From a virus, in the IMG/VR virus record IMGVR_UViG_3300045988_115994: DNA of 16,259 nt; one strand, given 5' to 3'. Under the pieces are notes generated by a model that worked only from the letters and a program-made list of their open reading frames with translations, made no database searches and was not told where the DNA came from. Below are positions 1,380 through 16,259 of this stretch, one piece after another. Made by a program: the position numbers and the translations under genes. Position 1 is the first letter of the stretch; every line of letters begins with the position of its first letter.

Positions 1380-1866
1380 GGACTACCTCTTAAGTTTGCG
1401 GGGAAAACAGCGGCGCGAGATGTACAAACAGCTTGTGCCGCTTGCAAACAAGCAGAAAGTACGAATTGAAAAGCAAGGCTTGGAGAAAGAAAGTGTGCTA
1501 AATGTACTACATAAGCGGACTAACTGGGATATAGATAAGTACAATTCACGCGCTTATCTTAAGTTGGTTCGATTTGTTACAGCGCGCTCTCATACTTTAA
1601 CTGGGATAAAGGAAATAAGGCAGGAACGTACGCAAGCATTACGCGATATGGGAATATCTGAAAATCTGTTAAATGAAGCAGATTTTTATACTTTTTTGCA
1701 TAGTCAAGAATACAAAAGTTTAAAAATGCGCAACCCATCGGAGGATATTATCGAAATTTATGATTTACTTTTTTCGCAGGGTAAGTCACATACAGAAATA
1801 CAACAAGAATTGCAAGAATATTCTAGCGCTACACATGTTTATGTAAAGGGGAGGGCTTTATGGTAA
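1369..1866 (+). CDS. Hypothetical basic helical protein (165 aa from ATG 1369; the ORF track starts at TTG 1348); candidate terminal protein by position only
   Basis: The ORF ends in ATGGTAA, overlapping the polymerase start, as the terminal-protein gene precedes the polymerase gene in phi29. The start overlaps the upstream stop (ATG 1369, TAA 1377-1379). No sequence similarity to phi29 TP was recognised and there is no strong RBS. Confidence 0.5.
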   Translation: MYNKDYLLSLRGKQRREMYKQLVPLANKQKVRIEKQGLEKESVLNVLHKRTNWDIDKYNSRAYLKLVRFVTARSHTLTGIKEIRQERTQALRDMGISENLLNEADFYTFLHSQEYKSLKMRNPSEDIIEIYDLLFSQGKSHTEIQQELQEYSSATHVYVKGRALW

Positions 1867-4043
1867 TATCTGTACAGCAGACTAAAAATGGAAAAGAAAC
1901 GATTGAAACTAAAGAAACAGTGTATTCTGTAGCGTCATACCCATATGACGCTACAGTTTTAGATTGTACTACAGTACGGAAAAAAGGGCGAAACGGACTT
2001 ACATATATAGCGTGTCCGGCAACGTTTGACATAGAAAGTACAACTATAGACGGCGAAAAACCAGAAGCATTTATGTATCATTGGCAGTTTTGCTTGAATG
2101 GTAAAGTCTGTTTTGGGCGAACTTGGGAAGAATGGATAAATTTTATGCATAAGCTAGGAACTACTTTGGAATTGGACGCTAAAAAAGTGTTAGTAATATA
2201 TGTCCATAATTTAGCTTATGAATTTATGTTTATAAAGGATTTTTTGCATATAGAATCACTTTTTGCGAGAGAAGCGCACAAGGTTATTAAAGTTTTAGTT
2301 TGCTTGGGTAATGATTACGGGAAAAGTATAAATAAAGTTGGGAATGTTTCACGTGAAACATTTCTTCTTCCCTTTTTTGAATTTAGGTGTAGTTATTTTT
2401 TATCAAATATGTCTTTATCTAAATTTTGCGAAAATAGCAAATTTTGCACACACTATAAATTAGTAGACACTTATGATTATAGAAAAATACGGACACCGTC
2501 GACGCCGATGACGGAGGAAGAATTAGCGTATTGTTATAACGATGTAAAAGGTTTAGAAGAGTGCATTTTGTCGAAATTAGATGACGAGTGTGACACGTTA
2601 GCTACCATACCTTTAACATCGACAGGATACGTGCGGCGAGAAATGCGTGCAGAGTGCCGAAAACATCCAGAATATCGCGAACTTTTTGAAATACTTATGC
2701 CTACTACACAAATTTATACGTTATTGCGTCAAGCGTTTCGTGGCGGCAATACTCATGCGTCAAGGTACTATGCAGATGCCGTCATAGAGGGAGTTTACAG
2801 CAAAGATAGAGTGTCTAGCTATCCGGCATGTATTGTATCTGATTTATACCCAATGACACCATTTATAGTGTACGAACCTAAGTCTTACGCACAACTTATA
2901 GCGGATTGTGGAAAAAAGAAAAATGCTATAATAATGCGTATAACTTTATTTGATTTAGATGTGCACGATGATGTGACCGTGCCATATATTGATTTTGCGC
3001 ACTGTATAGCCTACAGTAAAAATTATGTAAATGATAACGGACGAGTGTTATCAGCCGATTGGATAACATATGCTTGTACAGAGTTGGACTTTTTAATTAT
3101 AAATAATCAATATAGCTACGATACTATGCGCCTAGAATGGCTAGAGGGCTACAAGGCAGAGAAAGACTACTTGCCTAAACCCATAGTTGACACAGCTCTT
3201 TCTTATTATGACAAGAAAACACAATTAAAAGATGTGAGTGGAAAAGAATATGAGTATGCAAAAAGCAAAAATAAGGCTAATTCCGTTTTTGGTGTTATGG
3301 TTACAGATATATGTCAAGGCGAAATAGAATATATAGATGGCGTTTGGTCTAAGACTATGCCGGATAAGGAAAGTGCTATAGCGGCTTACGCCGCAAGCAA
3401 AAACTCTTTTTTGCTTTATCAATGGGGAGTTTACATTACAGCAAATGCGCGCTATGAACTGCAATGCATGATTGATGCTTGCGGCTATGATTTTGTGTAC
3501 GCAGACACGGATAGTGTAAAATTTATTGGTAAAAAACATTTAAAATCTTTTGACGACAGAAATAATTATTTATTATCCAAAAAACAAAAGTACAGAAATT
3601 ATAGTGATCGTTTAAACGATGATGGCACAACAACGCGATACACGCTCGGTGTATGGGATGATGATGGTTTTTATAAAAAGTTTAAAACATTGGGTGCGAA
3701 AAAGTATGCATATATTGCGGACGAGAAAAACAAAAAAACTGGAGAGATAGAAGAAGTTTTACATGTTACTGTTTCCGGCTTATCAAAAACAAAAGGCGCG
3801 GCAGAACTTGCGCGTGGAAATGGCTTAGCTGATTTTAAAATTGGCAAAATATTTACTGACTCGGGGCGCACAGTGTCATACTTTAATGAGAGCGATGTAC
3901 ATACTATAAAAGTAATAGATTACAATGGAAAAGAAAGTGAGTTTACCACAGCGTCAAACATAGCAATAGTTGATACTACTTATACTTTAGGTGTATCTGA
4001 CGAGTACGCCGCCGTCTTAGGCTCTTGTATAAATTTTGAATAA
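1860..4043 (+). CDS. Protein-primed family B DNA polymerase (phi29 gp2-like), 727 aa
   Basis: RBS GGGGAGGG upstream. Motifs seen: ExoI FDIESTT, ExoII HNLAYEF, ExoIII YCYNDV, motif A DRVSSYP, motif B KNKANSVFG, motif C YADTDS, and KxY as GAKKYAY followed by VTVSGLSK. Motif order and spacing are as in the phi29 polymerase. Confidence 0.95.
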   Translation: MVISVQQTKNGKETIETKETVYSVASYPYDATVLDCTTVRKKGRNGLTYIACPATFDIESTTIDGEKPEAFMYHWQFCLNGKVCFGRTWEEWINFMHKLGTTLELDAKKVLVIYVHNLAYEFMFIKDFLHIESLFAREAHKVIKVLVCLGNDYGKSINKVGNVSRETFLLPFFEFRCSYFLSNMSLSKFCENSKFCTHYKLVDTYDYRKIRTPSTPMTEEELAYCYNDVKGLEECILSKLDDECDTLATIPLTSTGYVRREMRAECRKHPEYRELFEILMPTTQIYTLLRQAFRGGNTHASRYYADAVIEGVYSKDRVSSYPACIVSDLYPMTPFIVYEPKSYAQLIADCGKKKNAIIMRITLFDLDVHDDVTVPYIDFAHCIAYSKNYVNDNGRVLSADWITYACTELDFLIINNQYSYDTMRLEWLEGYKAEKDYLPKPIVDTALSYYDKKTQLKDVSGKEYEYAKSKNKANSVFGVMVTDICQGEIEYIDGVWSKTMPDKESAIAAYAASKNSFLLYQWGVYITANARYELQCMIDACGYDFVYADTDSVKFIGKKHLKSFDDRNNYLLSKKQKYRNYSDRLNDDGTTTRYTLGVWDDDGFYKKFKTLGAKKYAYIADEKNKKTGEIEEVLHVTVSGLSKTKGAAELARGNGLADFKIGKIFTDSGRTVSYFNESDVHTIKVIDYNGKESEFTTASNIAIVDTTYTLGVSDEYAAVLGSCINFE
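2343..2362. repeat. Copy 1 of the 20-bp perfect palindrome AATGTTTCACGTGAAACATT, inside the polymerase CDS
   Basis: Exact 20-mer identical to copies at 5988, 7155 and 11070. It is read in frame as GNVSRETF, between ExoII and ExoIII. Confidence 0.95.
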
Positions 4044-4057
4044 TTGCAAAATAATAG

Positions 4058-4084
4058 TTGACAAAATAGAAAAGGGCTTATAAT
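4058..4084 (+). promoter_or_regulatory. Early promoter P-E1 (TTGACA ... TATAAT)
   Basis: TTGACA at 4058-4063 and TATAAT at 4079-4084 give only a 15-nt spacer; TAATAA at 4081-4086 would give 17. The -10 and the initial transcribed region (TATAATAAATAATGTAAGAGAACA) are paralogous to the promoter at 4701. Confidence 0.55.
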
Positions 4085-4135
4085 AAATAATGTAAGAGAA
4101 CAAATAAACAAGCATAAGAAAGAGAGGAAATAAAC

Positions 4136-4309
4136 TTGAGAAGAACATTTTATGAGAAAGTAAAGAAGTATGGCTCGGTTGACACCAGAAAGTATAGATA
4201 TGTGTTAGAGGACTACGGGAACGTAGCGCGCTTGCCACTTGAATATCTGGACACTACAAGAGCGGAAGATGGATGGAAAATTATCAAAATTCCGGTGGAG
4301 TGGAAATAA
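4136..4309 (+). CDS. Small hypothetical protein (57 aa, TTG start); below the length cutoff of the ORF track
   Basis: The leader AGAAAGAGAGGAAATAA is identical over 17 nt to the endolysin leader (375-391) and sits 3 nt before the TTG. I checked the open frame codon by codon. The stop TAA overlaps the next ATG (TAATG at 4307-4311). Confidence 0.5.
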   Translation: MRRTFYEKVKKYGSVDTRKYRYVLEDYGNVARLPLEYLDTTRAEDGWKIIKIPVEWK

Positions 4310-4503
4310 TGACTATAAAGTTAATAACTGATTGGCTTATATCTTGTTATGAGACAGGCTACCTGTCTTATAGCGAGATACGAAATGACAGAATTTTGTT
4401 TAAAATTCACAGATACTTTCCGCGAGCCAATCCAAAAGAAGCGGAAGAAGCAAGAGAACGAGCGCTTATGTATTTAGGGAGGTTATTGCATGAAAATAAA
4501 TAA
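4309..4503 (+). CDS. Small hypothetical protein (64 aa)
   Basis: ATG 4309 is preceded by GGTGGAGTGG and is coupled to the upstream ORF. The track start at 4273 lacks an RBS. Confidence 0.6.
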   Translation: MTIKLITDWLISCYETGYLSYSEIRNDRILFKIHRYFPRANPKEAEEARERALMYLGRLLHENK

Positions 4504-4529
4504 AAAGAAGCCGTGTATGCGGTGTTAAA

Positions 4530-4691
4530 ATGTTGGTTAATGATAAAATCAGTTTACGCATGATTTACGATGATTTATGGCTATACTATTTATTAGTAGG
4601 TCTTGGTTTATCAAAGCAGGAAATAGTAGACGCTGAACACGAGATAAAAGAAGCAATTCTAAATTGTTTAAAAGAAAATTTAAAAATTTAG
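4530..4691 (+). CDS. Possible small hypothetical protein (53 aa)
   Basis: An open frame fills the gap between 4503 and the -35 box at 4701. The only Shine-Dalgarno is weak (GGTG). It is not in the ORF track because it is under 60 aa. Confidence 0.3.
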   Translation: MLVNDKISLRMIYDDLWLYYLLVGLGLSKQEIVDAEHEIKEAILNCLKENLKI

Positions 4692-4700
4692 AAAAAGTTA

Positions 4701-4728
4701 TTGACATTTCCGGCAATAAGCGTATAAT
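4701..4728 (+). promoter_or_regulatory. Early promoter P-E2 (TTGACA-N16-TATAAT)
   Basis: TTGACA at 4701-4706 and TATAAT at 4723-4728, followed by AGATAATGTAAGGAACA, which is shared with P-E1. Confidence 0.6.
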
Positions 4729-4789
4729 AGATAATGTAAGGAACATACAAAACAACAAAGCAACCAAACAAGAAAGTGAGGAAAACAAA

Positions 4790-4978
4790 ATGACATTATT
4801 TGATTTATTCACAGCGAATGCAGAATGGAATACAAAAACAGAATTAACTATTAGCTACAATCATTTAGGTGATACTAAATGGGATTCTGGACAGGCGTTA
4901 GACATAATTTATAAATATGAAAAATTTGAGGTTTTAAGTTTTTATAAAAACTCATTATTTTTAAGAGAACAAGAATAG
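4790..4978 (+). CDS. Small hypothetical protein (62 aa), paralogue A
   Basis: ATG 4790 follows the RBS AAGAAAGTGAGGAAAA. The track start at 4664 lies upstream of the promoter. The protein aligns with the product of 5039..5236 (DSGQALDIIYKYEKFEV versus DSGSAIDMITKYHNFRV). Confidence 0.65.
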   Translation: MTLFDLFTANAEWNTKTELTISYNHLGDTKWDSGQALDIIYKYEKFEVLSFYKNSLFLREQE

Positions 4979-4983
4979 CCGAA

Positions 4984-4999
4984 ACGCCCTAATTGGCGT
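4984..4999 (+). other. Conserved post-stop hairpin A (ACGCC-N6-GGCGT) in the block GAAACGCC..GGCGTAACGTACAAGG
   Basis: Stem 4984-4988 pairs with 4995-4999. The same block recurs at 5228-5243. Confidence 0.6.
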
Positions 5000-5038
5000 A
5001 ACGTACAAGGTCTGCAAAGCAGGGAGGAAAAAACAAAA

Positions 5039-5236
5039 ATGAATTTTTATAATTTATACATGTTAAATAGCGGTTGGACACCATATTCAAATATAGATAT
5101 TGCGTATCTACATGATGGAAAAATAGTTCGCGATTCTGGTTCGGCAATAGACATGATTACTAAATACCATAATTTCAGAGTAGTCGCTTTTATAATGGAT
5201 AATGTAACCTTAGAAGAAGTAACTGAAACGCCATAA
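5039..5236 (+). CDS. Small hypothetical protein (65 aa), paralogue B
   Basis: RBS GGGAGGAAAAAA upstream. It is a tandem paralogue of 4790..4978. Confidence 0.7.
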   Translation: MNFYNLYMLNSGWTPYSNIDIAYLHDGKIVRDSGSAIDMITKYHNFRVVAFIMDNVTLEEVTETP

Positions 5237-5243
5237 CGGGCGT
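5228..5243 (+). other. Conserved hairpin B (ACGCC-N6-GGCGT), overlapping the stop codon of 5039..5236
   Basis: Stem 5228-5232 pairs with 5239-5243 and is followed by AACGTACAAGG as in copy A. A second stem, CAAGG/CCTTG, spans 5250-5266. Confidence 0.6.
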
Positions 5244-5315
5244 AACGTACAAGGCTTGCAACCTTGCGTCTAATAATGCTAAGTAACGCACAAACAAGAA
5301 AGTGAGGAAACAACA

Positions 5316-5564
5316 ATGGTAAGAATATCAGCAGAGACAAAATATAATTTAATGGGAGCGGTAGAGAGATGTAGTAACTATTATAAAAATACAACTCACA
5401 CGTATAACTTTAAAGAAATATACCGTGATACAGATAATACTTTTCTCTTTCACGTTACGAGAATTTCTAATAAAGATCTCGGGCGTCTCGTAGAACCGGA
5501 AACAGTTGGATACATTAAATTATATTTAGATGATAAAACAAAAAAGACTGAATTTTTCAGATAA
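5316..5564 (+). CDS. Small hypothetical protein (82 aa)
   Basis: The RBS AAGAAAGTGAGGAAAC is nearly identical to the one at 4770. I recognise no motif. Confidence 0.65.
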   Translation: MVRISAETKYNLMGAVERCSNYYKNTTHTYNFKEIYRDTDNTFLFHVTRISNKDLGRLVEPETVGYIKLYLDDKTKKTEFFR

Positions 5565-5571
5565 AGCCGAA

Positions 5572-5616
5572 ACGGGAGTCACATTCTCCCGTCACTGGAA
5601 GATAGCTACTTCCAGT
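5572..5616 (+). other. Two adjacent strong hairpins after the stop of 5316..5564 (ACGGGAG/CTCCCGT and ACTGGAAG/CTTCCAGT)
   Basis: Stems 5572-5578/5586-5592 (7 bp) and 5594-5601/5609-5616 (8 bp). They are preceded by the same GCCGAAACG lead-in as hairpin A. No T-tract follows. Confidence 0.6.
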
Positions 5617-5687
5617 CTGACGATGGCAGGCTAACAAGTCACGCAGTTTCACTAAATTATTCAAAAAAGAAAGAGAGGAACAACACA

Positions 5688-5984
5688 ATGAAAGCACCGT
5701 TCACAAGAACAGTAACCACATCGGTTGATTATGATGTGGTAACAGTATCTACCAAGGGAATTGAAGTTCTCGACCATCTGCATTTACCGGACGAACTCGA
5801 TACGGCTACTAAAAAGGCAATCGAGAAGAAGCACTCTGGCAAAAAGATTCAGTTCATCGAATCTGCCAGAACAGAGGAAAAGCGCTATATTTCCTATGAG
5901 GATTTCATGGCGCATTCCATGACAGAAAAGGACTGGAACGATCACAAGGCGGCAACAGCAGAGTCTGCACCGACTTCCAAGTAA
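5688..5984 (+). CDS. Hypothetical protein (98 aa)
   Basis: RBS AAGAAAGAGAGGAAC upstream. The gene is GC-richer than the upstream cassette. I recognise no motif. Confidence 0.7.
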   Translation: MKAPFTRTVTTSVDYDVVTVSTKGIEVLDHLHLPDELDTATKKAIEKKHSGKKIQFIESARTEEKRYISYEDFMAHSMTEKDWNDHKAATAESAPTSK

Positions 5985-5987
5985 GTA

Positions 5988-6007
5988 AATGTTTCACGTG
6001 AAACATT
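5988..6007. repeat. Copy 2 of the 20-bp palindrome, 3 nt after the stop of 5688..5984
   Basis: Exact AATGTTTCACGTGAAACATT. No T-tract follows it. Confidence 0.95.
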
Positions 6008-6043
6008 AACTAACATATCTTAAATACGAAAAGGAGATAAATA

Positions 6044-6472
6044 ATGTCAAGCAGAAAAATCAGAGGAATTGTAAGAAACATTTTTGTCAAAGATGACAAC
6101 GAAGTATCAATTTTAATCGAGATCGACGAGAAAACAGCGACAGAGCTCCGCGGCGTGTATGATGCAAAAATCGAGAATCCGTTAAAGGACGGTGAGGGCG
6201 ATCTTGAGGGCAAGGTGCTGTACAAGGCACACACAAAATATCCGGTGAACCTTTACATGCAGGGCGACCCTGTGGAAACAGAGGACGAGACGGAAAATAT
6301 CGAAGAAATCCGCAAAATCGGCAATGGTTCGGCTGTAACTATCAGAGTCCGCGAGCAGTTGTACGGTCGCTACAAGTCAAAGAAATTCCAGTCTGCTTAT
6401 CTCAAGGCAATCAATGTACGCGAGCTTGTAGAAGCAGAGCCGTATATGGATTTTGACGAAGATGACAACTAA
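6044..6472 (+). CDS. Candidate single-stranded DNA-binding protein (gp2.5/DUF2815-like), 142 aa
   Basis: RBS AAGGAGA upstream. Evidence for the call: an acidic C-terminal tail (PYMDFDEDDN), PLKDGEGD and IGNGSAVTIRV segments reminiscent of phage gp2.5-type SSBs, and a position in the replication module. The product call is an inference. Confidence 0.5.
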   Translation: MSSRKIRGIVRNIFVKDDNEVSILIEIDEKTATELRGVYDAKIENPLKDGEGDLEGKVLYKAHTKYPVNLYMQGDPVETEDETENIEEIRKIGNGSAVTIRVREQLYGRYKSKKFQSAYLKAINVRELVEAEPYMDFDEDDN

Positions 6473-6490
6473 ATAACGATCAGCCGCAGT

Positions 6491-6797
6491 TCTGCCATCC
6501 CACAGCATGAAACAACATACATGCAGTAGAATGTCATCGAATGGCATTGAACGGCATTGCACAGCATTAAATGTTGTGTGATGCCGATGGATGGCAGATA
6601 AGCGGGTGTATTGCATTACGGGTACTGGACAGTTATTTTGGTTTTCTCTCGTTTCCTCCGACTTGCCTAGTCGAAAATGTCCAGATTTTTATGTCAACCA
6701 GTACCCGTAATGGAGTATTACCCGCTATCCCGTTAAAAGCCCCGTACACCATGCGGAAAAACGCAGGGGTGCAGAGTGGTGTCTGCAAGGATAGCGG
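6491..6797 (+). ncRNA. Candidate structured non-coding RNA (pRNA-like or late-operon leader); not assigned to any known family
   Basis: Perfect long-range complementarities: 6491-6500/6589-6598 (10 bp), 6601-6607/6720-6726 (7 bp), 6615-6628/6698-6711 (14 bp) and 6722-6730/6789-6797 (9 bp). Local hairpins at 6659-6673, 6740-6769 and 6770-6787. The only ORF here has no RBS. Confidence 0.4.
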
Positions 6798-6832
6798 CGA
6801 ACCTCTAAATTAAATAAGGGAGAGTAAAGAAG

Positions 6833-7156
6833 ATGATTTATTTAATTACTTTTTTGTTTATGGTTCTGGATTTTATAAGCGGAATCGTAATGGCAGTGAA
6901 GAACAAGAATTTCAATTCTTCTATTATGCGTGAAGGGCTTTTCAACAAGTTCGGTTCTGTTTGCGTGATTGCTTGCGCGGTGCTGATTGACTGGGGGCAG
7001 ATTTATCTTGATATTGGTTTTACCGTTCCGGTAGCGTCTGCAATGTGCAGTTATATTATTCTTATGGAAATCGGTTCGATTTTGGAAAACGTAGGGAGAA
7101 TAAATAAGAACTTAGTACCCGAGAAAATCCGGTCGATATTAGAAAAGGTTTCATAA
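6833..7156 (+). CDS. Holin (phage holin family 4 / toxin-secretion holin-like), 107 aa
   Basis: RBS AAGGGAGAG upstream. Three hydrophobic segments, an N-terminal VLDFISGIVMAVKNKNFNSS..GLFNK pattern typical of this holin family, and a charged C-terminus. Confidence 0.75.
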   Translation: MIYLITFLFMVLDFISGIVMAVKNKNFNSSIMREGLFNKFGSVCVIACAVLIDWGQIYLDIGFTVPVASAMCSYIILMEIGSILENVGRINKNLVPEKIRSILEKVS

Positions 7157-7174
7157 TGTTTCACGTGAAACATT
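7155..7174. repeat. Copy 3 of the 20-bp palindrome (extends to 24 bp, 7153..7176); overlaps the holin stop codon and abuts the tRNA
   Basis: Exact 20-mer, with flanking AT/AT that extend the palindrome. The tRNA acceptor stem starts at 7177. Confidence 0.95.
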
Positions 7175-7176
7175 AT

Positions 7177-7247
7177 TGGCGCGTAGTTCAGAGGGAGAAC
7201 AGTAGATTCTGACTCTATAGTCGCGGGTTCGATTCCCGCCGCGCTAG
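7177..7247 (+). tRNA. tRNA-Gln, anticodon CUG (71 nt, CCA not encoded)
   Basis: Hand-folded cloverleaf:
- Acceptor TGGCGCG/CGCGCTA (U1-A72, G2-U71), discriminator G.
- D stem GTTC/GAAC with loop AGAGGGA.
- Anticodon stem GTAGA/TCTAT with loop TTCTGAC.
- Variable region AGTC.
- T stem GCGGG/CCCGC with loop TTCGATT.
U1-A72 plus G73 is typical of bacterial tRNA-Gln. Confidence 0.9.
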
Positions 7248-7266
7248 TTTTTGGAGGAAAAGAGAC

Positions 7267-8334
7267 GTGAAGTTTACAAAACCTTATTACAATTTAGATG
7301 AAATTAAAAGTGTAAAAGATTTAGACGGTTGCGAACCGATCTTGAGAATGATTATTGGAAACCGTAGCGCCGGAAAAACCACGGCTTTACTAATTGAAAG
7401 TTTGAATAAACATAAAGAGGATAGTTCGCAAGTTGTATTCTTATACAGAACACAAGACGAGATAGCAAGCAGTGGCAAAATGTATGAAGATGTTTTTGAC
7501 AATTACCCAGAAATGGGTAAAATGGTTACAAATAAAAGTGTAGTTAAAGGGCTTATTAGCGCTATGATTTTACATGACGCGGAGGAAAATCAAAGCGTTT
7601 TAGGCTATGCGGTTTATTTTAACAATCCCGATAAAATCAAAAAATATAGCCCTATGTTTAAAGATGTAAATTTGATTGTTTTTGATGAATTTGTACTTGA
7701 AAACAATGGTTATTTAAAAAATGAGATAACTAAGTTTGAAAGCGTTTTGCGTAGTATATGCCGTGGTAAAGGTAAGCAAGTGCGTGATGTTCCAGTTTAC
7801 ATGCTTGCGAATTATGTAGTTTTGCTAAACCCATATTATATATTTTTTGGTATGCACAAGCGATTGCGTGATAATACAAGGTTTTTACGCGGTCATGGTT
7901 GGGTAGCACAATTTACTATCAATAAAAGCGCTAAGAAAGCGCTTAATGAAAGTGGATTAAGTAAAGTTTTTAGTAATAGTGCTTATACGCTATCATCCGC
8001 TGATGGAATTTATCTATGTGATGCCACGGCTTTTGTTGAAAAAATCAGTGGAAACAGTAACTATATTTTTACTCTTGTATGTGGGAAAGATCGTTTTGCT
8101 GTAAGAGAGTATCCAGAAAAAGGTGTGGTTTATATTGACTACACAGCAGACCCCAACGCAAGACATATTTTTACGTTCGACCCGTCAAGCCACAATGCAG
8201 ATACGCTTATGTTATCGAGTAAGTCTTTTATTTATGATTATTTAAAGAGGGCTTATGATATGGGTCTATTGAGGTTTAAAGACCTTAAATGCAAAAATAT
8301 TGTGTTGGATATATTGAGTGTGAGGTTGATGTAA
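7267..8334 (+). CDS. DNA encapsidation (packaging) ATPase, phi29 gp16-like
   Basis: GTG start 9 nt after GGAGG. Walker A is IIGNRSAGKTT (compare phi29 VIGARGIGKS) and Walker B is NLIVFDEF. N-terminal similarity YYNLDEIKS versus FYNPQKMLS. Confidence 0.9.
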   Translation: MKFTKPYYNLDEIKSVKDLDGCEPILRMIIGNRSAGKTTALLIESLNKHKEDSSQVVFLYRTQDEIASSGKMYEDVFDNYPEMGKMVTNKSVVKGLISAMILHDAEENQSVLGYAVYFNNPDKIKKYSPMFKDVNLIVFDEFVLENNGYLKNEITKFESVLRSICRGKGKQVRDVPVYMLANYVVLLNPYYIFFGMHKRLRDNTRFLRGHGWVAQFTINKSAKKALNESGLSKVFSNSAYTLSSADGIYLCDATAFVEKISGNSNYIFTLVCGKDRFAVREYPEKGVVYIDYTADPNARHIFTFDPSSHNADTLMLSSKSFIYDYLKRAYDMGLLRFKDLKCKNIVLDILSVRLM

Positions 8335-9476
8335 TGGCATTGAGCGATTATAGAGATTATGGTTATAGCAAAGCGGTATGGGATAATTTAATGACATACA
8401 TAAATAACTCTATAGGCGTAGCGGCGTTGATGGGAAATTTATATGCAGAGAGTGGAATAATACCATATAGATGCCAAGGAGATTTTAGCTCCATCAACAA
8501 TTTTTTACCAAGTAAAAATTATACTAAAGACGTAGATAGCGGTGTAGTTAGTGAGTATGATTTTGTGGAACATGGATTATATGAGAATAAAGACGGGTAC
8601 GGGCTTGCGCAATGGACTTATTACACACGTAAACAAGGATATTATAATGCATGGAAAAGTGGCGGCTACTCAAGTATCGGTAGTTTGGAATTAGCTTTAT
8701 TTTATCTTAAATATGAGTTAGAAAATGATTACACTGATACTCTTAATGTGTTAAAAAATGCTAGTGATATTCGTACAGCTAGCACATATGTTCTTTTTAA
8801 TTTTGAAAACCCCGATAATAAAGGGGAAGCAGTACAGAATTTACGGTATAGCTATTCGAAAGATATTTACGATAGTTTTAATGGTTCTGCACCGATTGAA
8901 AGAAAAAGTTTGACTATAACACCAACTAGTACTAGTATTATAGACGGGGGAACTGTTACAATTAGTGTTGAAGCGACCGGAGAGTGGACGTACAACTTAG
9001 GGCACTATCTCTCACTTGTAGAAAAAACTGACGGCGTGCTTGTAATTAGCGGCAATGCAAACACCGCCCAGATTACAACCGCCGTAGCCTTTTGGCTTGT
9101 AGATGATGCAAGTGTGCAAGTCCAATGCCAGATAGGTATTAACCGACCCGCACCGCCCGCGCCGACTATCAGCGTTACGCCATATAGTCAGACCGCAAAT
9201 GTAAACACGATTGTTAGATTTATGGTAAGCGCTAACAGAGCATGGAGCGTTAAAGTACCTAGCGGTGCTAGTTTGTATCGTAAAGACGGTAACTCGGTTT
9301 ATATTTTAATAGGTAATACCGCTTTAACCAGAATTGTCTTAAGATTTTATATCAATGATGATGTGAATATCTATCAAGATGTACCAGTAAATATATTAGG
9401 TGTGTCGCCAATTCCGAGCGGCAGAAAAACGCCTTTAATATATTATTTAAAACCATTTTTAGGAAAAAGGAGGTAA
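8334..9476 (+). CDS. Tail-associated peptidoglycan hydrolase: phi29 gp13 N-terminal lysozyme-like domain plus two Ig-like C-terminal repeats
   Basis: The start ATG overlaps the ATPase stop (TAATG). MGNLYAESG and GYGLAQWT match gp13 MLGNMQSES and GFGLVQWT. The C-terminus has two ~90-aa beta-rich repeats separated by a PAPPAP linker. No LytM motif (HxxxD/HxH) was seen. Confidence 0.8.
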   Translation: MALSDYRDYGYSKAVWDNLMTYINNSIGVAALMGNLYAESGIIPYRCQGDFSSINNFLPSKNYTKDVDSGVVSEYDFVEHGLYENKDGYGLAQWTYYTRKQGYYNAWKSGGYSSIGSLELALFYLKYELENDYTDTLNVLKNASDIRTASTYVLFNFENPDNKGEAVQNLRYSYSKDIYDSFNGSAPIERKSLTITPTSTSIIDGGTVTISVEATGEWTYNLGHYLSLVEKTDGVLVISGNANTAQITTAVAFWLVDDASVQVQCQIGINRPAPPAPTISVTPYSQTANVNTIVRFMVSANRAWSVKVPSGASLYRKDGNSVYILIGNTALTRIVLRFYINDDVNIYQDVPVNILGVSPIPSGRKTPLIYYLKPFLGKRR

Positions 9477-9480
9477 AAAG

Positions 9481-9771
9481 ATGACAGCAGACGAAGCTTT
9501 GAAAGCGATCTTAGGAAAGATTGAAGCGCCGGAGGAATTAGACGAAGAAATCAACGTAATCACGGAGTCAATCAGAAGTGGCGCAAACGTAACCGACGAC
9601 GGCTACAAGGAACGCTATGAGGGATTGCGCGAAAAGTACATTGCGCGTTTTGGCGAGATGTTAGCCGGACAGGAAAATCCGAGAACGGACATTGAAGAAC
9701 CAAAAGCGGATGTTGAAGTGATTGAGGACGTAACGCCGGATATGCTCGATTTTGACGGCAGTACAGAGTAG
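9481..9771 (+). CDS. Scaffolding protein candidate (96 aa, acidic, helical)
   Basis: RBS AAGGAGG upstream. Size, charge and position immediately upstream of the capsid gene match phi29 gp7. There is no strong sequence identity. Confidence 0.55.
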   Translation: MTADEALKAILGKIEAPEELDEEINVITESIRSGANVTDDGYKERYEGLREKYIARFGEMLAGQENPRTDIEEPKADVEVIEDVTPDMLDFDGSTE

Positions 9772-9791
9772 AGAAAGAGAGGTAGAAGAAA

Positions 9792-11069
9792 TTGGCTAAT
9801 AAAGTAGCGGCAACAAATGTTGCCATATTAAACGCTGTGAGATCTATGCAAAGTCTTGAGTATCGTGACAGAATTCCCGAAGCAACGGCGGAAAATATCT
9901 CGTCTATTTACGAGAGTCTACTGAACATCGTACCGTTGCGTAACGCGTTTGCTAATGCTCTGGTTGAACAGATCATGGAACAGAGGATTGAGACGGTCTT
10001 TTTTGAAAATCCTCTGGGAGTCCTCAAAAGAGATCCTATGCGCTACGGCGGAACGGAAGAAGAAATTTTTGTGAACATGGCAAAGGGTAAGCAGTTTAAC
10101 CAGTTTGCTACAGTAGCAGAGTTATACGCTTACTACCAGACAAGCGTCATGGCGGCTTACCATAAGATCACACCGGCTATCCAGTACGCGGTTACAGTTA
10201 CTTTTGACAACTTGCGTACGGCGTTTAGATCGGAGTACGGCGTGCGCGATCTGATTAACGCAAAAGTGCAGTCACTTTTTGCGGCGGCGAACTGGGACGA
10301 ATATTTATGTATGAAACGTTTGATTGAGAGCGCGAGCGCGGCAGATCAGCTTTATGCAGTTAATGTTGCAGACCCGACAGCGAGTGCGGAGAACGCGAAG
10401 AAGCTGACGAAGCTTGTCAAGGCGTACATTGGGCAAATGAAGTTCCCGCACCCAGAATACAATATTGCCGGAGCAGATTCTTGTGCAAACGATCAAACAA
10501 TTTTTTATATTACAACGCCAGAGATTGATGCAGAGTTAGATGTTGAGGTACTTGCTACCGCGTTTAATATGGACAAGGTGGATATTAACGTCCGAAAGAT
10601 CATCATTGACAAGTTTGATGACCCGAACATTAAGCTTGCGTTATTTGATATGAGATTTTTCAATGTGCGCGAGAATTTCCGGACGCTGACGGATTCGAGA
10701 AATGGTGCGGCGCTGACGTGGAATTATTTTTATACGATGTCAGAGATGTTTTCCTATTCTCCGTTTTTTCCTTGTATCGTCTTTACCACAGACACCGTCG
10801 GGCTTACAACCGTGAGTATTACAGACACCGCCGGAAACGTGGGAACTGATGTGGGGATCACGGCGTTAGTAAGCGGAGACAGCCAGTACACGCCGCAAAT
10901 GCTTGACTATGACGTTGAAGGCGCTACAAGTCAGTATACGTCCTTTATCCCCGGTTCTAATATTTTGCATATTGCAAATGACGAAAAAGCGGCAACACTT
11001 ACGGTCAAAGCAACGTCAAGATATGATAGCACGATCAGCGGAACAGGTACTGTCACAGTCAACCAGTAA
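9792..11069 (+). CDS. Major capsid protein, phi29 gp8-like, with a C-terminal Ig-like (BIG2-type) domain
   Basis: TTG start after GAGAGG. By-eye matches to gp8: NPLGVLKRD versus NPLKKFKKG, DEYLCMKRL versus DEYEYMKLL, IDAELDVEVLATAFNM versus LEAELDVDVLAKAFNM, and LTWNYFY versus LYWNYYY. C-terminal TLTVKATS matches gp8 LTVKATV. Confidence 0.92.
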   Translation: MANKVAATNVAILNAVRSMQSLEYRDRIPEATAENISSIYESLLNIVPLRNAFANALVEQIMEQRIETVFFENPLGVLKRDPMRYGGTEEEIFVNMAKGKQFNQFATVAELYAYYQTSVMAAYHKITPAIQYAVTVTFDNLRTAFRSEYGVRDLINAKVQSLFAAANWDEYLCMKRLIESASAADQLYAVNVADPTASAENAKKLTKLVKAYIGQMKFPHPEYNIAGADSCANDQTIFYITTPEIDAELDVEVLATAFNMDKVDINVRKIIIDKFDDPNIKLALFDMRFFNVRENFRTLTDSRNGAALTWNYFYTMSEMFSYSPFFPCIVFTTDTVGLTTVSITDTAGNVGTDVGITALVSGDSQYTPQMLDYDVEGATSQYTSFIPGSNILHIANDEKAATLTVKATSRYDSTISGTGTVTVNQ

Positions 11070-11096
11070 AATGTTTCACGTGAAACATTGATTTTT
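11070..11096 (+). terminator. Copy 4 of the 20-bp palindrome (11070..11089) followed by a T5 run; likely a partial intrinsic terminator after the capsid gene
   Basis: The exact 20-mer starts 1 nt after the TAA, then GATTTTT. The RNA stem would be 8 bp and AT-rich with an ACGU loop, so it is weak. Confidence 0.55.
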
Positions 11097-11133
11097 GAGG
11101 GGAGTGCAATGCTCCCCTAGAAATGAGGGAAAC

Positions 11134-15331: not shown

Positions 15332-15961
15332 ATGTATAAAAGAGATTATCACCCAGACGAAAATTTAATTTTTGAGACAGAACACTATAAGTTTCCGGTG
15401 TCCAAGAGTACCACGGAAGACCCCGATCTTGCAAGAACTGTAAAAATCGACGAAGCGCTATACGACGAAGCAAAAGTAAGGTTAAACGAAGATACAAAAC
15501 TAAACAAAAAAATTGATGATGAAACCAAAAACAGAGAAAACGCTGACCAGTCGTTGGAATCAGAAATCTATAAAATAACGCCAAGTATCAAATTTTTGCG
15601 TTTTGGTAAAGATGATTTTACCACGTTAAGCGGTTCTCCGGTAAATGTAGAAGTTTTTATAACAATGCTAAAGATAAATGATATTGTTATTATGTTTCAT
15701 AGAGTTGTATTCACCGGAAATGCTCCAAGTAATTTTATTTCTTACACTGCACAACTAGATCTGACAAAAGTAATACCGAGCGGCTACAAGGTAAGCAATT
15801 TTAGTATATGGCAATCTTTAATACGCAAAGACGATAACATTTTAGCTACTCGTAGCAATGATATACAAATTATAAACAGTAATAAATATCTGTACTACCA
15901 AACGAAAGAACCTACTGGATGCGTTTTTTGCGGTACTACAATTTGCATGTTATCGGAATAA
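15332..15961 (+). CDS. Second fibre or receptor-binding-like protein (209 aa)
   Basis: RBS GGGAGGG upstream. An N-terminal fibre-like motif (EHYKFPVSKSTTEDPDLARTVKIDEALYDE), a short charged coiled-coil segment, and a C-terminal beta-rich domain. The last base of the stop codon TAA (15959-15961) is the first base of the right ITR. Confidence 0.5.
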   Translation: MYKRDYHPDENLIFETEHYKFPVSKSTTEDPDLARTVKIDEALYDEAKVRLNEDTKLNKKIDDETKNRENADQSLESEIYKITPSIKFLRFGKDDFTTLSGSPVNVEVFITMLKINDIVIMFHRVVFTGNAPSNFISYTAQLDLTKVIPSGYKVSNFSIWQSLIRKDDNILATRSNDIQIINSNKYLYYQTKEPTGCVFCGTTICMLSE

Positions 15962-16259
15962 GTTATCCACACCAAACAAGTGTTCGATAGTGTTCGCCCA
16001 CCAAAGACAGGTTGTGTCCGCGGTGAACGGACACTTTTTGTTTTAATTGTATATACAATTATGATAAATTGTTGTATTGTCTGATTTCAACAAAATCAAT
16101 GGTAAAAGTGCACAAAATTTTGATGTATGTTTGTGCAATATTACTATTGACATCTTATATTTGATCAAGTTTCCCATAGCAAATTTAATATCTGAAAATC
16201 GAACAGGTGTTTGTCTTTTTGGGGAAAACGGTGTCCGTCCTACACGGACTATGTGACTT
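15961..16259. repeat. Right inverted terminal repeat (ITR), 299 bp
   Basis: Exact reverse complement of 1..299. Confidence 0.97.
16014..16044 (+). terminator. Intrinsic terminator inside the right ITR
   Basis: GTGTCCG (16014-16020), loop CGGTGAA, CGGACAC (16028-16034), then TTTTTGTTTT. The mirror copy at 216..246 faces outward on the minus strand. Confidence 0.7.

Follow-up and report, generated by a model that had tools for sequence, protein, structure and literature searches.

The consensus bacterial parS site, to which the partition protein ParB (Spo0J) binds, is given as tGTTNCACGTGAAACa (PMC10197239; PMC7022226), and this 16-mer is quoted verbatim in many ParB papers. It has been used to map sites in gut Clostridia (the OMM12 set), all of which possess ParABS, and chromosomal parS sites, 1–20 in number, are clustered near oriC on megabase replicons (PMC10197239). 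That a phage can carry such sites is already known from phi29, for which two papers report five parS sites in the genome and an involvement of Spo0J in segregating this genome into the prespore (PMC2731898; PMC9437464). The DNA analyzed here, referred to as the window, is the whole 16,259-nt stretch of the IMG/VR virus record IMGVR_UViG_3300045988_115994. It contains four exact copies of a 20-bp palindrome, AATGTTTCACGTGAAACATT, whose 16-bp core, TGTTTCACGTGAAACA, matches consensus parS with no mismatch in all four copies. Judged by this sequence identity, the palindromes are very probably parS, i.e., cis-acting sites with predicted binding of host ParB (Spo0J), and a hijacking of the host parS/ParB system by a phage without a ParB of its own is considered equally probable. 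The four sites and the gene containing the first of them are:

2343–2362 (core 2345–2360), strand not assigned: parS-1, perfect consensus, in frame in the DNA polymerase gene, encoding GNVSRETF

5988–6007, strand not assigned: parS-2, perfect consensus, in the 59-nt gap between a 98-aa open reading frame (ORF) and a 142-aa ORF

7155–7174, strand not assigned: parS-3, perfect consensus, overlapping the holin stop codon, with tRNA-Gln beginning 1 nt downstream

11070–11089, strand not assigned: parS-4, perfect consensus, directly after the major capsid stop codon, the least constrained copy

1860–4043, + strand: family-B DNA polymerase of the protein-primed type (DNA_pol_B_2), 727 aa, based on PF03175, phrog_1907 and an alignment with phi29 gp2

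Palindromes and the parS Consensus

Within the window no further match to the 20-mer was found at ≤3 mismatches, and 200 dinucleotide-preserving shuffles yielded no match at all (0 expected versus 4 observed). An earlier sequence-only reading of this DNA, which had claimed that four identical 20-mers exceed chance, was thus correct on this point, and also in placing three copies at the ends of the 98-aa ORF, the holin gene and the capsid gene. Copy 2 starts 3 nt past the TAA stop (5982–5984) that ends the 98-aa ORF, copy 3 overlaps that of the holin gene (TAA, 7154–7156), and copy 4 begins directly 3′ of the TAA stop (11067–11069) of the capsid gene. Copy 1 is not situated at a gene end, but inside the polymerase ORF in the interval between Exo II and Exo III, which is a variable stretch in the alignment with phi29 gp2. 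A location of this copy within an insertion in the polymerase was rejected because no obvious extra segment is present relative to phi29 gp2. A half-site, GTTTCAC, does occur at 5646–5652 as had been reported, but this single isolated occurrence (2.4 expected) is at chance level. Of the two kinds of dimeric DNA-binding protein that had been proposed to recognize the dyad, the identity of the core with consensus host parS points to a host factor and argues against a phage regulator.

As a positive control, the phi29 genome was scanned. Four copies of TGTTTCACGTGGAACA and one weaker site with 3 mismatches were recovered, and one copy, at 17243, begins immediately behind the gene 16 TAA stop, an arrangement also found in the window.

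No ParB, ParA or helix-turn-helix (HTH) family was detected by Pfam in the 20 of the 23 window ORFs that were scanned (including all ORFs of at least 96 aa except the 574-aa tail protein, which was assigned by PHROGs), nor among the 10 window ORFs scanned with PHROGs. The ORFs long enough to encode ParB have other assigned functions, except for three late-region ORFs of 209–274 aa with no significant family match. The window thus lacks the cognate ParB/ParA on the same replicon that characterizes a self-contained partition cassette. Since no phage ParB, ParA or HTH protein is detectable, the reader of the sites must be a host protein.

The window is bounded by inverted terminal repeats (ITRs) of 299 bp (1–299 and 15961–16259) whose arms are 100% complementary, and therefore represents a complete linear genome with protein-primed replication from its ends. 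This 16,259-bp phi29-like podovirus genome has all genes on the + strand and encodes, in addition to the protein-primed-type DNA polymerase, a Gp16 encapsidation ATPase, a phi29-type capsid protein (Phi29_MCP; the major capsid protein corresponds to PF25622), a connector, a tail protein, a holin (PF05105), and two lysins. The 98-aa ORF has a weak phi29 p6-like match, and no lysogeny functions were detectable in the window. The host is probably a member of the gut Lachnospiraceae, as suggested by two kinds of protein similarity: the closest cultured phages, with a major capsid protein (MCP) identity of ~31–33%, infect Hungatella and Clostridium symbiosum (gut Lachnospiraceae), and the nearest endolysin relatives in bacterial genomes all belong to the Lachnospiraceae. 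A search for the MCP in 185,579 GTDB species genomes, which could have revealed a host or carrier-state contig, found none.

Conservation in Close Relatives

Because a megablast search with the complete window found no match in 50,697 phage records, relatives were sought through the capsid protein. The close relatives comprise 38 related IMG/VR loci, 37 of them with an MCP 95–100% identical to that of the window, whereas the DNA is only 70–96% identical. Orthologous sites were assigned by gene-anchored classification, which replaced a tRNA anchor or blastn of ±60 nt that covered only 13–15 loci; the counts for individual sites include the window.

At least one site (≤2 mismatches) was found in 37 of the 38 related loci, the exception being a 4.6-kb fragment. 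In the relatives that cover them, sites 1–3 occupy orthologous positions with a nearly invariant core and variable flanks, and the search for the element at such positions, which the sequence-only reading had proposed, was thus successful. No mismatch at site 2 was seen in any of the 36 genomes covering its position (the window and 35 relatives), and site 3 is perfect in 34 of 37, with three imperfect copies. Site 1 is perfect in 26 of 33 genomes and has one mismatch in the other 7, mostly at synonymous third-codon positions, and it lies within an ORF of 587–740 codons in all 33 relatives carrying it. At sites 1–3, the majority-base frequency is 0.99–1.00 in the core versus 0.69–0.72 in the 30 + 30 nt of flanking sequence. 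The numbers of variable columns differ accordingly between core and flanks, with 3/16 versus 53/60 at site 1 (p = 2e-7), 0/16 versus 56/60 at site 2 (p = 5e-13), and 4/16 versus 54/60 at site 3 (p = 8e-7), which is purifying selection at the sequence level.

In a comparison with L003–L035, the segment from 5693 to 6821, which contains the p6-like 98-aa ORF, parS-2, the 142-aa ORF, and an 80-aa ORF, gives way to DNA without homology in most relatives, although these are 70–96% identical elsewhere; no other part of the genome is as poorly conserved as the small-ORF region. Despite the exchange of the flanking genes, a perfect parS is retained at the equivalent of site 2, usually with TG rather than TT as its 3′ flank. 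The homology breakpoints between the window and its relatives (~5690 and 6825–6857) are located away from the sites, and a function as recombination junctions was therefore rejected.

Site 4 differs from the other three. It is perfect only in the window and in L001, L018, and L035, has 1–2 mismatches in 8 relatives and at least 3 in 11, and is missing along with ~30 bp in 6 of the remaining relatives. Sites 2 and 3 are strongly selected, site 1 is tolerated in the polymerase gene, and site 4 is dispensable in most relatives.

Distribution Among Distant and Cultured Phages

A more distant sample of 72 further loci was collected by MCP profile and not by motif, with MCPs 31–54% identical to that of the window. 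Among the 56 of these loci with a length of at least 12 kb, 32 contain at least one perfect parS, and 26 contain at least three sites at ≤1 mismatch. The groups carrying parS are the Salasmaviridae, the Guelinviridae, and two unclassified gut clades. The intergenic gaps occupied by parS differ from clade to clade, and the exact 16-mer is found in unrelated intergenic positions of phages whose proteins are only 25–45% identical. Only 23–44% of the sites fall within long ORFs, compared to 87% of random positions; the location of parS beside stop codons results from this avoidance of long ORFs in compact genomes with very short gaps. Members of a sister clade have 3–6 sites per genome, some of them as tandem arrays at 26-bp spacing.

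Tandem parS with a start-to-start distance of 25–26 bp were observed in L180 (5516–5583), L181 (5695–5762), phiCP7R (L249; pairs at 5096/5122, 8130/8155, and 12108/12133), and phiCPV4 (L256), and this arrangement is similar to the centromere arrays of plasmids. Directly next to one parS of the sister clade stands a TTGACA −35-like hexamer (L188 at 6015, L202 at 5912).

In 133 unique parS contexts (window, L001–L038, and L176–L246), A was found at position −1 in 94% and at position −2 in 80%, and the strong phi29 sites likewise have A at −1 in 4/4 and at −2 in 3/4. The 20-bp palindrome thus reflects a real flank preference, although its outer two positions do vary among orthologues. The AA/TT flanks may represent ParB contacts, or they may have their origin in the position of the sites beside TAA stops.

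Cultured phi29-like phages were scanned with a threshold of ≤2 mismatches. Sites were found in phi29 (4), B103 (2), Goe4 (1), phiCP7R (7), and phiCPV4 (7), and in the gut phages CH17P1 of Hungatella and CS229P2 of C. symbiosum (1 each), whereas parS was absent in 5/5 phages of non-spore formers (Cp-1, 44AHJD, asccphi28, Av-1, and Reje). Hence, 7 of 8 phages with spore-forming hosts carry parS compared to 0 of 5 with other hosts (Fisher p ~0.005, hand-calculated), or 5 of 6 compared to 0 of 5 when close relatives are collapsed (p ~0.013). At least two of the non-sporulating hosts, S. pneumoniae and S. aureus, themselves use ParB/parS, according to abstracts of papers. The sample of cultured phages is small, yet it points to sporulation rather than ParB per se.

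Proposed Function and Alternative Explanations

A possible course of events can be modeled on the established ParABS pathway, from which the steps involving ParB are taken. After injection, host ParB dimers would nucleate on the 16-bp core, bind cytidine triphosphate, and form closed clamps that spread along the linear genome of 16 kb. ParA/Soj, SMC, and the polar machinery for origin capture would then treat the phage DNA as origin-proximal chromosome. The likeliest benefit would be capture in the forespore, as in phi29, and a more general one would be that daughter cells faithfully inherit phage genomes that have not integrated (carrier state). Spore entrapment specifically is considered slightly more likely than not.

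Several observations weigh against this interpretation. The sites are predicted sites, from which we infer both ParB binding and the outcome of segregation, and the ParB specificity and sporulation ability of the host are deduced from the probable host group. The Spo0A box TGTCGAA occurs only once in the window, inside the polymerase ORF (2.2 expected), whereas phi29 has six, clustered at promoters; the degenerate form TGNCGAA occurs 13 times versus 6.7 expected (P = 0.03), but these hits are scattered and mostly coding. In the phi29 strategy, such boxes at early and late promoters and at the genome ends pause the lytic cycle. As Spo0A boxes are not enriched in the window, this half of the strategy is missing, and the phi29 system is only partly reproduced. 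Site 4 is decaying in most relatives, mainly by point mutation. With A preferred on each half-site, the favored site has the form AA-parS-TT, which extends outside the textbook 16-bp parS. The 13 cultured phages behind the association with spore formers are not phylogenetically independent. Finally, 20 of the 56 distant loci of at least 12 kb have no parS within 2 mismatches, and Bacillus phage GA-1 lacks parS at ≤2 mismatches. Since the sites are missing in about one-third of the distant relatives and in GA-1, the lifestyle does not depend on the trait.

A more far-reaching proposal can be put forward only tentatively and as one joint reading. Hijacking of the host centromere might be general and repeatedly evolved in tiny protein-primed podoviruses of endospore formers, with persistence in spores or as ParB-partitioned episomes in a carrier state, without the Spo0A boxes that phi29 employs. 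Phages supposed to be strictly lytic would in this way also pass from host to host within spores. It would include the abundant uncultured phages of gut Lachnospiraceae and Clostridium, and in one variant the sites would be a ParB sink that manipulates host sporulation.

Among the alternatives, the best surviving one, although unlikely, is that the sites act as a sink or decoy that titrates host ParB off the chromosomal origin. Hundreds of replicating genomes with four sites each would deregulate ParA/Soj and DnaA control, block or delay sporulation or division, and keep the cell a vegetative phage factory. Mutants of B. subtilis that lack spo0J are sporulation-defective through Soj. Site identity and conservation support a sink as well as they support segregation, and the very high density of sites (4 per 16 kb, and up to 7 per genome in the C. 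perfringens phages) is in agreement with it. A sink also predicts the association with spore-forming hosts, and the scarcity of Spo0A boxes is in line with a phage whose lytic cycle proceeds without pausing. However, one site per genome would suffice at high copy number, so that the strong selection on two sites is less well explained, and the phi29 literature reports an involvement of Spo0J in segregating the genome into the prespore, which is a positive use of ParB (PMC2731898; PMC9437464). The same comparative data fit both the sink and segregation.

Transcript punctuation was the lead idea of the sequence-only reading. According to it, the palindromes would form RNA hairpins that serve as terminators, attenuators or processing/stability elements at module ends, as the position of three copies beside stop codons might suggest. 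The hairpins at the four copies indeed fold at −8.9 to −12.3 kcal/mol and better than shuffled sequences (z −2.7 to −3.5). Nevertheless, they were rightly regarded from the outset as poor classical terminators: the stem is an AT-rich 8-bp helix with only two G-C pairs, T-tracts are missing at most copies, and copy 1 alone passes a terminator-like scan. Copy 4 is followed by a T-run (GATTTTTG) as had been stated, but it is not alone in this, since the sequence downstream of copy 1 is T-rich as well. Moreover, in every relative carrying it, copy 1 is embedded in the ORF of the essential polymerase. Compensatory double changes were not found among 15 variant site types, and the central ACGT, which would form the loop, is as invariant as the arms. 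Selection consequently acts on the sequence and not on an RNA or DNA structure. A neighboring GC-rich hairpin, in contrast, does covary:

11098–11118, + strand: GC-rich hairpin, AGGGGAGT-GCAAT-GCTCCCCT, in the capsid/tail gap downstream of parS-4 and separate from parS

Compensatory double changes were detected across relatives in 3 of the 8 pairs of this hairpin, and the region folds at −23.6 kcal/mol. After the capsid gene, it is thus this hairpin and not the palindrome whose structure is conserved. It has no T-tract downstream and may be an RNA stability/processing element or an unconventional terminator. In addition, the exact 16-mer recurs at unrelated gaps in distant phages, whereas terminators vary freely, and its sequence is the same as that of a known protein-binding site. 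Terminator identity was therefore rejected, and punctuation in any form is highly improbable.

Equally improbable is an operator for a small unannotated phage regulator or a miniature mobile palindrome that spreads by insertion. Several small ORFs without known function between 4136 and 6813, the different intergenic positions in different clades, the presence/absence of site 4 with a ~30-bp indel in 6 relatives, and the unity that AA/TT flanks lend to the 20-mer could be cited in favor, but unrelated regulators of four phage groups would need one specificity equal to the universal host parS, the site is invariant although the small-ORF region is poorly conserved, and the mobile-element option of the sequence-only reading fails because the copies share nothing but the 20-mer, show no target-site duplication, and are positionally fixed at sites 1–3, while site 4 decays largely by substitution and homology does not break at the sites. 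A miniature inverted-repeat element was rejected in particular since only site 4 shows presence/absence, and this in a divergent ~30-bp stretch.

Significance of Phage-Encoded parS

The survey extends the carriage of parS well past the phages of Bacillus, from which such sites had been described. The accessible literature that was searched contains no mention of the distribution of parS across phi29-like phages; a 2024 review of >2000 phi29-like genomes mentions neither parS nor spores, and parS is not mentioned in the paper describing phiCP7R and phiCPV4. What appears to be new is the breadth of perfect-consensus parS, often in multiple or tandem copies, among gut clades of uncultured phi29-like phages and in phages of C. 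perfringens.

If the sites act as in phi29, the phage represented by the window and many of its relatives would not be simply “virulent,” but could take refuge in spores of gut Firmicutes or be partitioned together with the chromosome of the host. This would bear on phage persistence, on person-to-person transmission together with spore-forming commensals, and on the interpretation of virome data. As a practical rule, a repeated CACGTG-centered 16-mer in a phage of Firmicutes should be read as parS before a terminator or an operator is considered.

Additional Features of the Window

Each ITR contains a terminator-like hairpin, GTGTCCGCGGTGAACGGACAC, followed by a T-run (226–246 and 16014–16034), and a promoter-like site (170–199 and 16061–16090). 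The strongest terminator-like match in the genome is located at 1927–1956, ~70 nt into the polymerase ORF, where a 4-nt loop closes a perfect 13-bp stem, CTGTAGCGTCATACCCATATGACGCTACAG, with TTTTAG behind it. This hairpin may serve as an attenuator or otherwise regulate how the polymerase is expressed.

The gap between the holin and packaging ATPase genes contains the tRNA-Gln gene (anticodon CTG; 7176–7248), which was identified by ARAGORN and with 64 bits by Rfam. It is an unusual cargo for a 16-kb phage, and a simple sequence anchor at its start matched in only about one-third of the close relatives. Apart from the tRNA, no Rfam family reached the gathering score in the window, and a packaging RNA (pRNA) was thus not recognized despite the presence of the Gp16-type packaging ATPase and the connector. 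A divergent pRNA may be located in a non-coding stretch of the window.

The early small-gene region (4076–5322) consists of repeated units. It contains the promoter-like sequence GCtTATAATaaATAATGTAA at 4076, 4720, and 5190 and a 42-nt repeat at 4976 and 5220. Repeats of the form AAGAAAG(A/T)GAGGAAA, which include a ribosome-binding site, are found at 373, 4114, 4768, and 5294, and the small ORFs at 4664–4978 and 5039–5236 have the motif DSGxAxDxIxKYxxF in common. Taken together, the repeats suggest that early genes were duplicated in tandem and that a separate promoter serves each of them.

Comparison with Known Systems

Rho-independent terminators resemble the palindromes of the window in being dyads just after stop codons with a hairpin stable relative to shuffles, but differ from them in stem composition, T-tract, loop variability, and covariation, and in that one of the palindromes lies within an ORF.

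The linear prophage N15 has several palindromic centromere copies dispersed among phage genes on a linear replicon, and the parS of P1 is a palindromic partition site as well. Both are temperate phages that rely on ParA/ParB proteins of their own (SopA/SopB), and their site specificity is private. In contrast, the phage represented by the window has neither partition proteins nor detectable lysogeny functions and uses the site of its host.

The phages phiCP7R and phiCPV4 (Guelinviridae), which infect C. perfringens, are phi29-like and share with the window intergenic parS of consensus or near-consensus sequence, often right after a TAA stop. Their seven sites each are arranged mostly as pairs 25–26 bp apart, whereas the window contains only single sites. 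They also belong to a different family, have a different gene order, and encode a SpoVG homologue.

The known precedent is phi29 itself, whose Spo0J-dependent spore entrapment was reportedly described by Meijer et al. in 2005, according to papers citing that study. Like the window, phi29 has a linear protein-primed genome, several dispersed host parS both inside genes and in short gaps, no ParB gene of its own, and a comparable density of sites (4–5 per 19.3 kb versus 4 per 16.3 kb in the window). The two differ in that all copies in the window are the perfect palindromic consensus, whereas phi29 has the B. subtilis variant TGTTTCACGTGGAACA, and in that the Spo0A boxes at the promoters of phi29 have no enriched counterpart in the window. 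Further differences are the length of the ITRs (299 bp versus 6 bp in phi29), the location of all window genes on one strand, the lack of a packaging RNA family at the Rfam threshold in the window, an MCP identity of ~27%, and the host, which is probably an anaerobic member of the gut Lachnospiraceae for the window and Bacillus for phi29.

With the chromosomal parS of the Bacillota (ParABS/Spo0J-Soj-SMC), finally, the sites of the window share all 16 bp, and the same reader protein is expected. The chromosomal sites near oriC serve the cell, whereas the four sites of the window are carried by a 16-kb viral genome without oriC and would serve the virus.

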